In this document: positions 7,297-38,757 of the stretch, piece after piece
How the letters are laid out: each line of letters begins with the position of its first letter
How positions within the stretch are numbered: the stretch's first letter is position 1
Assembly: GCA_965116885.1 (NCBI GenBank)
Contig: OZ220741.1
Location: forward strand, 1,472,001-1,536,000
Origin: Candidatus Latescibacterota bacterium
GTDB taxonomy: Bacteria; Latescibacterota; UBA2968
DNA length: 64,000 bases
Reading direction: 5' to 3'
The notes under the pieces: generated by a model
What the model was told of the DNA's origin: nothing
Database searches by the model: none
The model's input: the letters and a program-made list of their open reading frames with translations, nothing else
Program-made: the position numbers and the translations under genes

Positions 7297-7596
7297 TTGA
7301 GAAGATGAATGGGGAGTGCGGCGAGAAGTTCTTTTGTTTTCAGATATTTGCTTGTATTTCTATTTTCCATTTTTACGCATGCATGATTATCATTTATTCT
7401 TATAGTATAAATGAATTATAGAAGTCTAATTCATTGTTTGAGAAATAGGCTACATTCTTTGCTTCTCTTTGTCGAGTATTTCCTTTCACACAATTCACAC
7501 GTTTGTGGTACACAGTGGTTAATGAGGTTGTGGCTATCAGTATATCCACGCGTCTAAAACAGCGATATACCATGAGCAAAAGGGGAAGAATGGCTG
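7297..7596 (-). promoter_or_regulatory. Conserved ~300-bp leader, copy A
   Basis: Colinear with 38463-38757; TCGACA(7470-7475)-17 bp-TAGCCT(7447-7452); palindrome ATGAATTA-N8-TAATTCAT; direct repeat TTCACAC-N2-TTCACAC. Confidence 0.8.
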
Positions 7597-7605
7597 AAAT
7601 AGAAA

Positions 7606-7643
7606 CGCCCTTCCTCACTTCCATCGGGAAGTAAAGAAGGGCG
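7606..7643 (-). terminator. Stem-loop upstream of leader A
   Basis: CGCCCTTC...ACTTCC-ATCG-GGAAGT...GAAGGGCG, followed by TTTCTATTT on the minus strand. Confidence 0.55.
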
Positions 7644-7750
7644 AAATGCGAGGGTTTTTTGTGTTTACCAATCCGATCTTTGAAGTTATAGAGATCGGGT
7701 TTTATAGAGATTTATATGCTGTGATCGGAATTTGATCGTCTCTTGATCAG

Positions 7751-7785
7751 AGAAAAAAAAGCACGCTCTAAACAGAGCGTGCTTT
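7751..7785 (-). terminator. atp operon terminator
   Basis: Stem AAAGCACGCTCT/AGAGCGTGCTTT with T8 on the minus strand, just after atpC. Confidence 0.85.
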
Positions 7786-34718: not shown

Positions 34719-34759
34719 GAATTCCTCCTGACAGAAAACTGTCTCCTATCCTGAAAAAA

Positions 34760-37700
34760 TCAACCATCATTGGGAGGGAAGTGACTGACAAAGATCGCAA
34801 AATCGGCACTATTAATGGTCCCATCGTCATTCAGATCCATATCAGCATCGAAACCATCCTCACCTTCTGATTTACCAAATGCGGCCACAAAGAGCAAATG
34901 ATCTGACGTATTGACCGCACCATCACCATTAAAATCCCCGATCAGACTGACAGACATAGAGAAACTATCCGTTGCAGTCGTACTTGCATTATCGGTCACG
35001 GTCACAGTAAGTGTGAAACTCCCTGCCGATGTTGGTGTGCCGGTGATGCTACCACTCGAATTGATCGAAAGACCAGAGCCTGTGGTGGGGTTGCTGGACA
35101 TGGCATACGTGTATGGCGTTTGACCTCCTGATACTGATACCTGAATAGGGGTAATAGCACTGTTGGTCTGCACAGCACTGATCTTGACTGTTATATCATC
35201 TATATCTGCGACTGTCAGTGCCGAAACGGGCGCAGGCGCATTTACCGTCAAGGTGAAACTCTCTGTTGCTGTCCTGCTTTCTGCATCGGTCACTGTGACA
35301 GAAATGGTGAACGAGCCAGTCGTTGTTGGTGTGCCGCTGATCTGTCCACTGCTTGAAATAGAGAGACCCGATGGCGCACCGGACATAGAATAGGTGTAGG
35401 GTGTCTGACCACCAGATGCTGAGACTTGAATGGATGTTATGGCCTGATTCTGAGTCGCGGTCACATTCGATATGGATGCAATTGTCAGCGGTGATCTGAC
35501 ACGCATCGTGAAAGAACGCTCTACCTTAGTGGTAGCAGCAGTGCCTGTCGCACCACCACTACCATCACTCACACTCACTGTTACTGTGAAAGTCCCACTC
35601 GCTGTGGGGGTGCCTGTAATGCGACCACTATCTGAAATCGAAAGCCCTGCTCCCGTTTTGGGGTCGCTCGCTATGGAATATGTATAGTTCCCTTGACCAC
35701 CTGATGCTGAGACCTGTATGGGGGTAATTGCCACATTTTGAGTGGCTGTAACATCCGCTATTGTTGCGACTTTCAGGGCTTGAAAAGGCGCAGAAACAGA
35801 CAGGTTAAACGTTGTCGATGCTTCGCCACTTACAGCATCTCGCACGGTTACTGTAATGTCAGATTCGCCAGTCGCTGTGGGTGTACCTTTGATGAGGACT
35901 TTGTCTTGATCAAAGACGATACCTGAGGGTAAGTCAGATGTGGAATACGTATAAGGTTTCCATCCCCCTGAGGCACTCACCGATATATCTGTAATTTCCA
36001 CATTCTGAGTCGCTGTAACATCCGCTATTGACGCAATTGCCAAGGGGGTGGTATTATTCCTGGTATTGTTCGACAATGTCATATCCGTCAGTGTCTGCGT
36101 CCCTTGCAAATCCAGGCCAACCACTGAATGTTGAATCGTAAAATGGCTCATGGTTAAATTGCCGTGATTCCTGATGCCATACCAGTTTCCAGACGCGGGA
36201 GTTGAAGTATCGGAACGAAATACAATAGGCTGATCGCTTGATCCATTGGCGATGATCTTTCCATAGTTGATAATATCGACGCGATTTTCATCTTTCATGT
36301 CGTGAATATCTCGATTGGGGTAAGCCTTGATCGTCGTGCCAGCATCAATTGTCAGGGTTGCGCCAGGACACACCACAATATCACCAATCAGCTTGATTGT
36401 ATCACGCCAGGTCACGTTTTGCACAATTGGGAATTGTTGAAACTCGGTATAAGGAACATTAACCTTATCGTAACCACTCGCTCCCCAACTGCCCCAACCA
36501 CTATGCAACGGCCCAGCAGCAGCCTTACTATCTCCTTGGCTTGGGACGTGTACTGTTCCCCATAATGCTCCTGTACCTAACCAACTCATTTCTGGTGCCA
36601 AACCTTTATTGGGTTGATTTGGATCGGGATTGGGCAGAAGAATTAAATCATACGATTGCGCGATGTCAGGATTTGTGTCCTCAACGCTGGTACTCAGGAC
36701 TATCCCGTCCGTCGTCAGGTCTTCACTAACACTGGCTTTAGCAGCATTGTTATAATTGCCTCCTGTGGGAAATGAACCATGGGAACCTGCTCCTACATAG
36801 ATAACAGGGTGGGTTTCGCCTTCAGCAGGCGCAAATTGTGTCCGGGGGTTGAAAGTCCTTTCGCCAATGCTGGTATAATTCATACCCTTGCTATGGAATT
36901 TGTAGTCAATTCCAACAAGTTCAGCCACTTCTGGATCATAGGACGTTATGCGAACATTAACGTGTGGCCAATCCCCTTCGTGGTCATTTTGAAAATCATT
37001 GAAGGGATAAAAGTAATAATACTGTATTACGACTTGACCGCCTTCTTCAAAAATATGCACGTATGCTGTATGAGGAAAATCTGGATGATCCCCACGCTTA
37101 GGATGCGTAGTGCTATTATAGTAATCATACCAGCTATCTTTACCCTTACTCTCATCATCCCTGTCCCCGTTACCAGGATATTCAAAATGTGCCGTCACCG
37201 GATGGGCTGCAGTAGCGTAATCTCCCGGAGGACGACCGGTATAACTTAAAACTTCAGGTAAAGACGCAAATTTATTCTGTGAAAAATTAATATCAGCATA
37301 CAGATTTTGGTAAGCACTAAGCAGATCAGAACTCCATCCTGACGCGGGATATTGAAAATGTTCTAAAAATTGTCCTGTAGCAGTATGGAGGCTAAACCAA
37401 AGGTTAGAAACGGACTCTGCACCCATGATTTCTACGGGTTCGGGGAAGATCACTTTGCGGTCTGGTTGCGTTGGATTTTTTGTCAAAATTAAAATTGGAG
37501 AAAATTTCTCGGCAAGTTCTATCGAATAAACACTCATACTGAAACTACGCTCCGCAGTGCTGCCGTGATCATCGGTCACTGTCACGATAATTGGGAAAGT
37601 CCCATCCTGTGAGGGCTTACCTGTGATGAAATTATCACTTGATAAAGAGATACCCATCGGCGCGCCAGATATCGAATACGTATAGGGTTCCCAACCGCCA

Positions 37701-38443
37701 GATGCTGATAAATGAATCGGGATAATCGAATTGTCCTTTTCGACTGTTTTATGCGCTATTGGTGAGACGTTCAGTGCCGGACGAATCGTGATGTTCAGAT
37801 CATGACTCATACTCTGACCTGCATCATCCCGCACATTTACTGTCACTGTGAAAGTCCCATTCTCTGTAGGTGTGCCTGTGAGGGTTCCCGACAGATCAAT
37901 AGAAAGACCATCAGGTGCTCCCTCTGTTTCTATTTCATCTGTTTCTATTTCATACGTATAGGAGGGTCGGCCTCCGGATACGCTTATTTGAGGGGGCGTA
38001 GATGTTAATGAGGTCCAGATGGAACTGTCCTCCGTACCCTTGATATCTTCAGGCCACGTTACTGTCAATGGCGGCAAGACCGGCGTGGCACTCGCGCTGA
38101 CGGATGTGCCATTTCCAGTCGCATTCACCGCACGCACCTCAAAGGTGTACGCGGTGTCATTTGTCAGGTTCTCTACCGTGTGACTGGTTGTGTTCTTATT
38201 ACTATTGGTAATATTCGTCCAGTCCGGTGACCAATTGCTGCCACTATCTGTGCTCTGTCGATACTGATACGTCGTGATGCTCTCATTATTCGGGTTATCC
38301 CAACTCAGCGTCACCTGTTGATCTCCTGCCACCGCAGCGAGGTTTGTCACTGCAGCAGGAGCAGACGGGGATTGGGCAGAAACAGGTCCAGAGATCAGGA
38401 TAACACTTATGGCTATGGCAGACAATACAGATTGTATCTTCAT
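34760..38443 (-). CDS. Secreted modular protein: FN3, He_PIG-like Ig repeats, Vps62/NPP1-like domain, beta-helix module, C-terminal dockerin/EF-hand-like tail
   Basis: Signal peptide ...PVSAQ; YTFEVRAVN; SGG..PYTYS...G.ITGTPT repeats; IQYYYFYPFND...HEGDW; GDFNGDGAVN..D and DLNDDGTINSADF. Confidence 0.85.
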   Translation of the reverse strand: MKIQSVLSAIAISVILISGPVSAQSPSAPAAVTNLAAVAGDQQVTLSWDNPNNESITTYQYRQSTDSGSNWSPDWTNITNSNKNTTSHTVENLTNDTAYTFEVRAVNATGNGTSVSASATPVLPPLTVTWPEDIKGTEDSSIWTSLTSTPPQISVSGGRPSYTYEIETDEIETEGAPDGLSIDLSGTLTGTPTENGTFTVTVNVRDDAGQSMSHDLNITIRPALNVSPIAHKTVEKDNSIIPIHLSASGGWEPYTYSISGAPMGISLSSDNFITGKPSQDGTFPIIVTVTDDHGSTAERSFSMSVYSIELAEKFSPILILTKNPTQPDRKVIFPEPVEIMGAESVSNLWFSLHTATGQFLEHFQYPASGWSSDLLSAYQNLYADINFSQNKFASLPEVLSYTGRPPGDYATAAHPVTAHFEYPGNGDRDDESKGKDSWYDYYNSTTHPKRGDHPDFPHTAYVHIFEEGGQVVIQYYYFYPFNDFQNDHEGDWPHVNVRITSYDPEVAELVGIDYKFHSKGMNYTSIGERTFNPRTQFAPAEGETHPVIYVGAGSHGSFPTGGNYNNAAKASVSEDLTTDGIVLSTSVEDTNPDIAQSYDLILLPNPDPNQPNKGLAPEMSWLGTGALWGTVHVPSQGDSKAAAGPLHSGWGSWGASGYDKVNVPYTEFQQFPIVQNVTWRDTIKLIGDIVVCPGATLTIDAGTTIKAYPNRDIHDMKDENRVDIINYGKIIANGSSDQPIVFRSDTSTPASGNWYGIRNHGNLTMSHFTIQHSVVGLDLQGTQTLTDMTLSNNTRNNTTPLAIASIADVTATQNVEITDISVSASGGWKPYTYSTSDLPSGIVFDQDKVLIKGTPTATGESDITVTVRDAVSGEASTTFNLSVSAPFQALKVATIADVTATQNVAITPIQVSASGGQGNYTYSIASDPKTGAGLSISDSGRITGTPTASGTFTVTVSVSDGSGGATGTAATTKVERSFTMRVRSPLTIASISNVTATQNQAITSIQVSASGGQTPYTYSMSGAPSGLSISSSGQISGTPTTTGSFTISVTVTDAESRTATESFTLTVNAPAPVSALTVADIDDITVKISAVQTNSAITPIQVSVSGGQTPYTYAMSSNPTTGSGLSINSSGSITGTPTSAGSFTLTVTVTDNASTTATDSFSMSVSLIGDFNGDGAVNTSDHLLFVAAFGKSEGEDGFDADMDLNDDGTINSADFAIFVSHFPPNDG

Positions 38444-38462
38444 CTTAAATTTACCTCTTTTC

Positions 38463-38757
38463 TTGAGAAGTTGAATGCAGTGCGAAGCCCTTTTGTTTTT
38501 CAGACATATCTTTACGGTTCTATTTTCCATTTTCACGCTTACATGATTATCACCTATCCTTATAGTCCAAATAAATTATAGAAGTCTAATTCATTGTTTG
38601 GGAGATAGGCTGTATAATTCAATGCTTTTTGTCAAGAACATCTTTTCACACGATTCACACGTTTGCCACACACGTTGGCAAATAAAGGTGTGACTATCCA
38701 GATATCCACATCTTTTAAACAGTTATATATTCAGGAGTAAAAGGGAAAGAATGGCTG
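38463..38757 (-). promoter_or_regulatory. Conserved ~300-bp leader, copy B
   Basis: Colinear with 7297-7596; TTGACA(38630-38635)-17 bp-CAGCCT; 27-bp identical core at 38574-38600. Confidence 0.8.

Follow-up and report, generated by a model that had tools for sequence, protein, structure and literature searches.

The homologous stretches and the gene beside them

We analysed a window of 64,000 nucleotides from a Candidatus Latescibacterota bacterium (contig OZ220741.1, positions 1,472,001 to 1,536,000). The genome under study, of 5.56 Mb, is called G000, and its relatives G002, G003 and so on. Two stretches of about 300 bp in this window, copy A (7297-7596) and copy B (38463-38757), each stand upstream of a minus-strand run of exported-protein genes. 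They are homologous, with 76% identity over 306 bp (E 1.6e-53; BLASTN with 7297-7600 against the whole genome), and a MAFFT alignment agrees. Every copy combines a tandem repeat, a promoter (P1) and a leader, and its promoter-distal part, read on the plus strand, translates into the N-terminus of one protein. We call this protein XRE-PRP, a working name for an XRE-type helix-turn-helix (HTH) / pentapeptide-repeat protein. We consider it probable that each copy is a duplicated divergent control region, with XRE-PRP as its candidate regulator.

An earlier sequence-only reading of this DNA had described A and B as a pair of colinear homologues. The homology and all of its coordinates are exact to the base, the sole deviation being one mismatch in the left palindrome arm of copy B. 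The pair is real, but whole-genome BLASTN finds a total of four copies, all on the minus strand and inside 57 kb. The two further copies, C and D, are partial; both are located left of the window, C at a distance of 0.4 kb (genome 1471575-1471718, 81% over 143 nt) and D at 18.6 kb (genome 1453317-1453438, 72% over 124 nt). The pairwise alignments extend over 306 bp for A and B, 256 bp for B and C, 144 bp for A and C, and ~2.5 kb for C and D. At copy A the homology ends at 7596-7600.

Only copy C has an intact XRE-PRP gene in this genome, open for 348 codons on the plus strand (genome 1471636-1472682, from the open reading frame (ORF) and tblastn). This gene starts 364 bp left of the window, and its 3' two-thirds occupy window positions 1..682. 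The other copies retain stumps on the plus strand. The copy A stump comprises ~25 codons (7515..7592; tblastn identity 60% over 25 residues, with 15/25 residues shared with intact orthologues). Copy B retains 66 codons (38675..38872; 50% identity across 66 residues, E 3.5e-13), which are interrupted in frame by a TAA but still cover the HTH, and 16 codons remain in copy D. The copy B stump is nearer to the intact gene of G014 (40/64) than to that of copy C (33/66). About one third of each 300-bp stretch translates as XRE-PRP and is therefore a pseudogene fragment and no leader. The description of the stretches as a 300-bp non-coding leader thus holds for the AT-rich untranslated leader, while the distal third or so is the decayed 5' end of a plus-strand gene. 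Similarly, the window had been said to encode no regulator; the intact paralogue ends at 682, so the candidate regulator lies partly inside it. For annotation, this locus illustrates that gene remnants can hide in conserved "non-coding" leaders.

The divergent layout of regulator and target with the repeat between them survives intact at copy C and, in relatives, at G003_C130, G020a, G014a and G015a. All 23 aligned sites retain at least the regulator start codon and the 5' untranslated region (5'UTR) upstream of the repeats. What was copied is therefore the entire divergent intergenic region, with an end point that varies inside the regulator gene.

The pentapeptide repeats of XRE-PRP are recognised by Pfam Pentapeptide (PF00805; 58.8 bits against a cut-off of 20.2, E 3.7e-16). 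Residues ~87-200 match pentapeptide-repeat profiles, with PDB profile E values down to 6.6e-25, and the structural model has beta-strand rungs at residues 138-205 with a predicted local distance difference test score (pLDDT) of up to 96. The C-terminal part is a helical domain. Residues 1-90 have no match in NCBIfam; their model, built from a nine-sequence alignment, reaches a pLDDT of 85.5 and has helices at 4-22, 27-38, 42-49, 58-71 and 78-82. The top Foldseek rows for this model are SinR, an XRE-family protein, the 434 and P22 c2 repressors and restriction-modification controller (C) proteins, and an XRE/Cro-type HTH is the likely fold of the N-terminus. Clusters with HTH_3 and pentapeptide repeats, ~300 aa long, occur in the ESM Atlas (score 0.85), which is a lead only. 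A literature search on XRE plus pentapeptide-repeat regulators, covering titles and abstract openings, returned only unrelated work and no characterised member, and a peptide-pattern search of the genome contigs for further XRE-PRP relatives yielded one locus only.

Tandem repeat, promoter and leader

The repeat unit is GTGTGAATn. Two direct 9-bp units directly adjoin T(C/T)GACA-17-nAnnnT, and this combination is common to all copies. On the minus strand the repeat reads GTGTGAAT-T-GTGTGAAA in copy A (7484..7500) and GTGTGAAT-C-GTGTGAAA in copy B (38644..38660); in A it covers about −61 to −45 of P1 and falls within what was once the XRE 5'UTR. Its plus-strand form is TTCACAC-AA-TTCACAC at 7485-7500 (A) and 38645-38660 (B). 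P1 of copy A (7447..7475, minus strand) consists of a −35 element TCGACA (7475-7470), a 17-bp spacer and a −10 element TAGCCT (7452-7447), and P1 of copy B (38607..38635, minus strand) of TTGACA, 17 bp and CAGCCT. As read on the plus strand, the −35 elements are TGTCGA (7470-7475) in A and TGTCAA (38630-38635) in B, and the −10 elements, each 17 bp away, are AGGCTA (7447-7452) and AGGCTG (38607-38612).

Downstream of P1, the longest exact run common to A and B spans 27 bases (7414-7440 / 38574-38600). It overlaps a palindrome with arms ATGAATTA and TAATTCAT in copy A (7411-7418 and 7427-7434), the left arm of which is ATAAATTA in copy B (38571-38578). A further block reads CATGATTATCA at 7382-7392 (A) and 38542-38552 (B), or TGATAATCATG on the minus strand. 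Concentration of conservation in the motifs had been set in advance as a test, and it is what we found: identity between A and B is 16/17 in the tandem repeat, 29/30 in the palindrome block and 11/11 in TGATAATCATG (94-100%), as compared to 9/17 (53%) in the promoter spacer and 70-74% in the remaining leader.

P1 resembles the strong promoters of the same organism. Sixteen of 48 tRNA upstream regions in this genome score at least 10/12 against TTGACA-16..18-TATAAT, as compared to 7 of 500 random 120-mers. These 16 mostly have the form TTGACA-17-TAnnTT, with −10 elements such as TAAATT, TAGATT, TATTTT and GATATT. P1 shares the near-TTGACA −35, the 17-bp spacer, and the A2 and T6 of the −10, which are conserved at 90% or more over the 23 sites among −10 variants TAGCCT, CAGCCT, CAAATT, GAAATT and CAGATT. 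Because P1 fits the tRNA promoter form, it is credible as a promoter of the housekeeping (sigma-70/sigma-A) type, with predicted starts near 7440 (A) and 38600 (B). A generic promoter scanner did not list P1 because its −10 matches TATAAT at fewer than 4/6 positions. The tRNA-backed form, with a perfect TTGACA, a 17-bp spacer and TAnnTT, is in itself a useful promoter model for Latescibacterota.

The position of the repeat relative to P1 is that of a class I activator site. Read by eye on the opposite strand, the repeat is flanked by a weak divergent promoter on one side and the XRE start codon on the other. Two other promoter candidates have a −35 that is poor by the standard of this genome, and we regard them at most as possible secondary promoters. 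The scanner reported one of them, TTCTCA-18-TATAAT on the minus strand of copy A; the other, seen by eye, is a plus-strand TTCATT-16/17-CATTAT/TATAAT facing the stumps. A reading of the core as an extracytoplasmic function (ECF) sigma promoter, TGAAT-N18-CGAC, was rejected by eye on account of its atypical spacing and of the T that replaces the C of CGAC at 7 of 22 sites.

A DNA search of relatives gave matches in 12 of 41 genomes: 10 of 20 from the same genus, G000 itself and one weak 29-nt match in another genus. Allowing up to 2 mismatches, we located GTGTGAATNGTGTGAAAN7CTYGAC at 22 sites; these belong to 10 of the 41 related genomes, every one of them a member of a single Latescibacterota genus (21 genomes). 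The reversed pattern gave 0 sites in the same 41 genomes. Among 185,579 species genomes (one genome per species), exact core matches occur in 10 stretches, all of them in Latescibacterota records of metagenome-assembled genomes; a metagenome scan for the core added one contig. An alignment of 21 loci (MAFFT) and an ungapped stack of 23 sites agree on the sole universal element, namely GTGTGAAT-n-GTGTGAAA, 8 bases, T(C/T)GACA, a 17-bp spacer and nAnnnT, with the −35 and the core conserved at 90% or more. The proposal of a shared minus-strand regulatory module, in which a promoter has a tandem repeat upstream and conserved blocks downstream of it, is thus borne out, and the same core extends across a genus. 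The number of repeats varies between species: G006a (L010) and G007 (L016/L079) have four GTGTGAATn units rather than two.

The leaders that follow the core fall into three types. The type-1 leader of A and B is present at full length only in G000_A, G000_B, G006a and G017a and in part in G003 (two loci), G014b and G011. G003_C25 is without ~90 nt of the leader middle, and G014b has only about the first 75 nt. A type-2 leader follows copies C and D and the core at about eight loci in relatives; behind it are genes that Pfam assigns to a PAS histidine kinase and an NtrC-type sigma-54 activator. A type-3 leader is found in G006b and G017b.

The predicted 5'UTR of A covers 7139..7446 (minus strand), of which 7297-7446 is the type-1 leader common with B, with 36% G+C as compared to 52% in the window. 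In B the predicted 5'UTR, a type-1 leader, spans 38444..38606 (minus strand) and contains the stem-loop at 38571-38594, TGATAATCATG at 38542-38552 and AAAATGGAAAATAGAA at 38518-38533. The most conserved block is an 8-bp stem with an 8-nt loop (7411..7440 in A, minus strand; arms 7434-7427 and 7418-7411). The TGATAATCATG block (7382..7392, minus strand) forms a small 5-1-5 palindrome in A and is kept in G006a and G017a, and the AAAATGGAAAATAGAA block (7358..7373, minus strand) has exactly two occurrences in the genome, in the leaders of A and B. The leader of G000_B is ~83% identical to that of the orthologous G017 locus, whereas the 4-fold sites of the gene behind are 67% identical (129 sites); judged by this comparison, the A/B leader is under constraint.

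A structured leader RNA had also been proposed, and our results lend it no support. Folding energies of the leaders are no better than those of shuffled sequences (z +1.02 for A, +0.66 for B). RNAalifold on the four full-length type-1 copies gave −6.8 kcal/mol with a covariation term of +0.38 and compensatory changes in 0 of 28 pairs, a comparison of low power with only four sequences that are ~80% alike. The window has 0 Rfam matches at gathering scores, and nothing matches in the A/B leader at E <= 1. At that threshold the six loci searched have five sub-threshold matches, which are ctRNA_pT181 on the type-2 leaders of C and D, and the L20/Thr leader and CsrC outside the A/B leader.

The stem-loop is the only element present in both centroid folds. 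It lies ~10 nt after the predicted start, and one pair is G-U in 6 of 7 type-1 copies. Such pairs form in the minus-strand RNA but are mismatches in the DNA and in the opposite transcript, and a role at the RNA level is therefore favoured over a repressor operator. The palindrome that the sequence-only reading took for a typical repressor site does exist, and the G-U pairs fit an RNA stem-loop at least as well. At the corresponding position, leaders of types 2 and 3 carry another hairpin. From these positions and pairings we favour an action of the stem-loop in the RNA, for example as a 5' stabiliser. Against a role in RNA only, the block overlaps promoter-like hexamers on both strands; on the plus strand, in our own reading, it contains a weak −35-like TTCATT facing the XRE stump.

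Other readings of the leader were rejected. A Fur-type box at TGATAATCATG agrees by eye with the 19-bp Fur consensus at 12/19 positions in A and 10/19 in B and has no second half-site. Neither leader block is among the genome matches to this consensus with up to 5 mismatches, and the whole genome contains no exact Fur box. A leader peptide or upstream ORF (uORF) starting ATG-GAA-AAT loses its frame through a 2-nt indel between A and G006a, seen by eye. A mini-frame M-I-I-M as uORF has no Shine-Dalgarno sequence in A and has conserved third codon positions, and it is therefore read as a nucleic-acid motif.

Genes behind the cores

A GC-rich hairpin with a T-run directly upstream of module A (7606..7643, minus strand; terminator scan, 17 pairs, inverted repeat I1) looks like a terminator, shielding the module against read-through from the atp operon. 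The A locus keeps its place after atpC in G003. Two terminator hairpins, at 7754-7785 after atpC and at 910-941 after the XRE-PRP gene, are ~90% identical over 32 bp (AAAAAGCACGC...GCGTGCTTT). Module B likewise has a GC-rich hairpin with a T-run directly upstream (38877..38902, minus strand; terminator scan, 11 pairs).

The A unit runs on the minus strand from 7138 to a terminator at 2220-2189 (terminator scan). Its first gene (6380..7138) encodes a 253-codon exported protein of no known family, recognised in one frame by tblastn with the G003 orthologue (92% over 253 residues); the G006 orthologue has no match in Pfam or NCBIfam. The gene is broken by two in-frame stops, TAA at codon 39 and TAG at codon 187, both opposite Gln in the G003 orthologue. 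These could reflect very recent inactivation (C-to-T), read-through or an assembly error. The rest of the unit (2189..6361) encodes a lipoprotein with an FGE-sulfatase domain (5591-6361; Pfam, N-terminus), an 872-aa protein with a tail of the type IX secretion system (T9SS) type (2930-5548) and a 180-aa lipoprotein (2292-2834), all on the minus strand. Owing to a 105-bp repeat (6271-6375 / 2744-2848, 92% identical), the FGE-sulfatase-domain lipoprotein and the 180-aa protein begin with almost identical lipoprotein signal peptides (MRCFWCILLAF.ILSCGGNSTGPEPI), and their genes share the ribosome-binding region upstream.

The first B gene (34760..38443, minus strand) encodes an exported protein of ~1227 aa with fn3, He_PIG, PKD-like and dockerin domains (Pfam) and a signal-peptide-like N-terminus, MKIQSVLSAIAISVILISGPVSAQ. 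Farther along the B island, an exact sigma-54-type −24/−12 element (32562..32577, minus strand; one of 38 exact sites genome-wide) precedes an ORF for a 474-aa thioredoxin-like protein. This element probably marks the end of the unit transcribed from P1 of copy B and the start of the next.

Behind the 23 sites we found two-component operons, the 253/254-aa exported protein, the FGE-sulfatase-domain lipoprotein and large fn3/He_PIG-type exported proteins; in relatives there are also phosphoesterase-like and patatin-like genes and genes for a 299-aa protein and a 236-aa membrane protein. Descriptions of genes without a Pfam scan are readings of their N-termini. Of the secreted-cargo regulon suggested earlier, it remains that secreted genes are the commonest cargo. 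The same core also heads the two-component operons and the phosphoesterase-like and patatin-like genes, so the cargo is varied and the cassette is not specific to secretion. Copies upstream of random genes had been named as a finding that would count against a dedicated regulon, and this is partly what the 23 sites show. The PAS kinase behind copy C (L029 4997-5518, genome 1470996-1471517) is cut to 173 aa with the PAS domain only, and its paralogue behind copy D is intact (404 aa; PAS, HisKA, HATPase_c).

The type-2 leader between the core and these kinases (L003 ~1400-1500, L004 ~1415-1515; genome 1471450-1471590 and 1453200-1453320) contains two conserved hairpins. RNAalifold gave −31.2 kcal/mol for 10 sequences, with a few pairs changed on both sides. 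The second hairpin has 16 bp and is followed by a long U-run in four copies. The two hairpins may constitute an attenuator or a small RNA.

The candidate binder, its rivals and known systems

XRE-PRP is the best candidate binder of the tandem repeat, because its relatives have tandem repeats of their own at the same place. A tandem 9-10-bp repeat lies −45 to −20 from the start codon in these relatives. In the subfamily 30-39% identical to XRE-PRP, all 5 loci have GTTCCATTTT twice. A genome from another family has three paralogues: one with TTTCAGGAGT twice, a second with, by eye, a weaker TTTCACG at a 10-bp period, and a third without such a repeat. As background, 73 (1.7%) of the 4247 ORFs in this genome with 200 aa or more have a repeat of this kind between −60 and −9. 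XRE-PRP subfamilies differ in their recognition helices, as they do in their repeats. Within the orthologues, the first 90 residues, which make up the HTH, are nearly invariant and the remainder diverges to 44% identity; a near-invariant HTH agrees with an invariant repeat, and we count this for XRE-PRP as the binder. The palindromes of the type-1 and type-2 leaders differ while the HTH is constant, and the repeat is therefore the shared candidate operator. From these comparisons we infer a candidate link between the HTH/pentapeptide-repeat protein and the tandem repeat.

The second XRE-PRP subfamily (L055-L059, in G002, G019, G017, G011 and G008), with frames of ~390-440 aa and the tandem GTTCCATTTT, is divergent to an apparent acyl/peptidyl-carrier-protein gene (by eye, in G017 and G011). 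The leader block AAAATGGAAAATAGAA resembles the repeat of this subfamily and was considered as a second motif, but neither the subfamily nor its 10-bp repeat was found in this genome, and we rejected it.

Several observations weigh against XRE-PRP as the reader of the repeat and against parts of the scheme built on it. G006, G017 and G019 hold two core sites each without a close XRE-PRP orthologue: G006 has no XRE-PRP match at E <= 1e-5, and G017 and G019 have only paralogues that are 30-33% identical. The repeat can therefore persist without XRE-PRP. XRE-type HTH proteins usually bind inverted, rather than direct, repeats. The second repeat of copy D is degenerate, and P1 is near consensus and may need no activator. 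At four loci of relatives, L010, L022, L025 and L026 (G006a, G014b, G017b and G006b), sigma-54 −24/−12 elements (TGGCACGCATnTTGC) take the place expected for the XRE gene, 61-119 bp upstream of the core. The repeat is transcribed from such an upstream promoter, which a simple activator-site model leaves unexplained. The loop of the stem-loop is conserved as much as its arms, and a purely structural hairpin would not need that. The HTH itself is likely but short of proven, because its sequence scores are sub-threshold and its fold matches moderate. Pfam HTH_26 reaches 17.7 bits (E 0.0042) where the cut-off is 22, and in a profile search of PDB sequences only the pentapeptide part of XRE-PRP finds matches. 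The best Foldseek E is 0.14, with none reaching 0.001, and VIA-align Z scores of 6-7.8 (root-mean-square deviation 2.6-3.0 over 66-71 residues) are in a middling range that can reflect a common arrangement.

The NtrC-type response regulator encoded behind copies C and D was tried as the binder. Orthologues at least 79% identical are missing in five core-bearing genomes (G006, G013, G014, G017 and G019) and present in three core-less genomes (G002, G009 and G011), and the genomes with hybrid sigma-54/core loci are without an orthologue of the copy D response regulator. By this distribution the NtrC-type regulator fits the repeat worse than XRE-PRP does.

Putting these results together, we propose that the ancestral unit was a plus-strand XRE-PRP gene transcribed away from a minus-strand target, and that it was copied several times with varying lengths of the regulator gene. 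In this genome only the regulator of copy C has survived, with A, B and D keeping stumps of 25, 66 and 16 codons. On the minus strand the module is ordered as stump and former 5'UTR with start codon, tandem repeat, P1 and leader. In A and B only, the leader is a predicted AU-rich, poorly structured 5'UTR of ~150-190 nt that opens with the 8-bp stem-loop, followed by the two conserved blocks. XRE-PRP would bind the tandem repeat, unite the P1 promoters of all four copies (with that of D degenerate) in a small regulon and block its own divergent transcript. The stem-loop would work at the RNA level, for instance by stabilising the 5' end.

If another factor reads the repeat, the cassette would be a real promoter and its adjacency to XRE-PRP historical. 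A conserved global regulator, the NtrC-type regulator of C and D and RNA polymerase through an UP-like element are the candidates. The three genomes that keep the core without a close XRE-PRP orthologue favour this view, as do a P1 that is near consensus for this genome and the sigma-54 promoters with the 15-mer TGGCACGCATCTTGC, which adjoin cores in relatives and also follow the response-regulator gene of copy D (genome 1450435-1450450). On the other hand, the presence of NtrC-type orthologues does not track the core, tandem repeats stand at the same place beside distant XRE-PRP relatives against a background of 1.7%, and an UP element is expected to be A/T-rich, unlike GTGTGAAT. We regard another reader as unlikely. 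It is improbable that the 150-190-nt A/B leader is a structured cis-regulatory RNA (a riboswitch, an attenuator or a protein-binding leader). The leader is more conserved than the 4-fold sites of the gene behind it, the stem-loop is kept with its G-U pairs, and the sister type-2 leader folds into two strong hairpins. These points are set against an A/B leader that is empty in Rfam, has positive folding z values and 0 of 28 compensatory pairs, and whose middle is missing in G003_C25 and which is short in G014b.

The copies could also be neutral leftovers of a segmental duplication that are no longer co-regulated, their blocks reflecting slow decay or overlapping promoter signals. Four copies inside 57 kb on one strand, useless gene stumps carried along, and the decay already visible in copy D and the first A gene would all be expected of such leftovers. 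However, orthologues of both the A-type and the B-type copy exist in other species, and the duplication is therefore old. Despite this, the repeat, the stem-loop and TGATAATCATG have kept 94-100% identity while the spacer is at 53%, and the core is unchanged across 22 sites from 10 genomes, which makes neutral decay an improbable account. Least credible, and very improbable, is a mobile element, either a miniature inverted-repeat transposable element (MITE) or insertion sequence (IS) fragment, or part of one. The module is AT-rich relative to the genome and has varied cargo and different genomic places across species, as such an element might. There are, however, at most 4 copies per genome (1-4 in relatives) and no transposase was seen nearby. 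IS or MITE ends were looked for, and no terminal inverted repeats are common to both copies. The module ends differ by copy and fall inside the XRE gene, and the A locus has kept its position after atpC in G003.

A broader idea, which we put forward tentatively as a possibility, is that HTH/pentapeptide fusions form a class of locally acting transcription factors that is as yet uncharacterised. The target of each would be a tandem direct repeat within its own 5'UTR, and its DNA-mimicking domain would serve as a built-in modulator. In the present genus one of them would have gained a regulon as its control region was copied before surface/secreted and two-component genes, with the spare copies decaying. 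If XRE-PRP does bind the repeat, this would be the first function for a widespread, uncharacterised HTH/pentapeptide architecture. Latescibacterota are an uncultured phylum that includes sponge symbionts, and their promoters and regulons are almost unstudied. The locus yields a concrete promoter form and a genus-specific 17-bp operator candidate with a named candidate binder, and its regulator stumps are a clear record of control regions copied whole before new cargo.

Among known systems, the layout comes closest to the divergent control regions of XRE (Cro/C1-type) regulators, for example Bacillus subtilis SinR and the restriction-modification C proteins. There too a small HTH gene stands beside its presumed promoter, repeated operator units lie in or beside its own leader, and autoregulation is expected. 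SinR reportedly accepts tandem as well as inverted motif pairs. Unlike SinR and the C proteins, XRE-PRP joins its HTH to a pentapeptide-repeat beta-helix and a C-terminal helical domain. The repeat units here run in direct orientation with a period of 9 bp, and the control region is copied before other genes with regulator copies decayed. Qnr, MfpA and AlbG, whose structures are solved, are stand-alone DNA mimics acting on gyrase. Their pentapeptide-repeat fold corresponds to residues ~87-200 of XRE-PRP, which differs from them in its N-terminal HTH.

The repeat also resembles class I direct-repeat sites such as the PhoB/OmpR boxes and the SARP heptads, with two head-to-tail units at a fixed distance from the −35 and a centre at about −53. 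It differs in its period of 9 bp as compared to 10-11 bp, in a candidate binder that is no winged-helix protein, in a −35 near consensus, and in the four units present in two genomes (G006a and G007). The start of the leader recalls the 5' stabilising stem-loops of the ompA and ermC type, since a short predicted hairpin ~10 nt from the 5' end occurs in all three leader types with different sequences. Unlike in the ompA and ermC leaders, the loop is as conserved as the stem and the block overlaps promoter-like hexamers on both strands. The kind of arrangement is familiar: the control region of a divergent regulator has been duplicated before other genes and the spare regulators have decayed. 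New are the motif itself, a promoter form for a phylum without cultured members, and the candidate link between an HTH/pentapeptide-repeat protein and a tandem-repeat operator.

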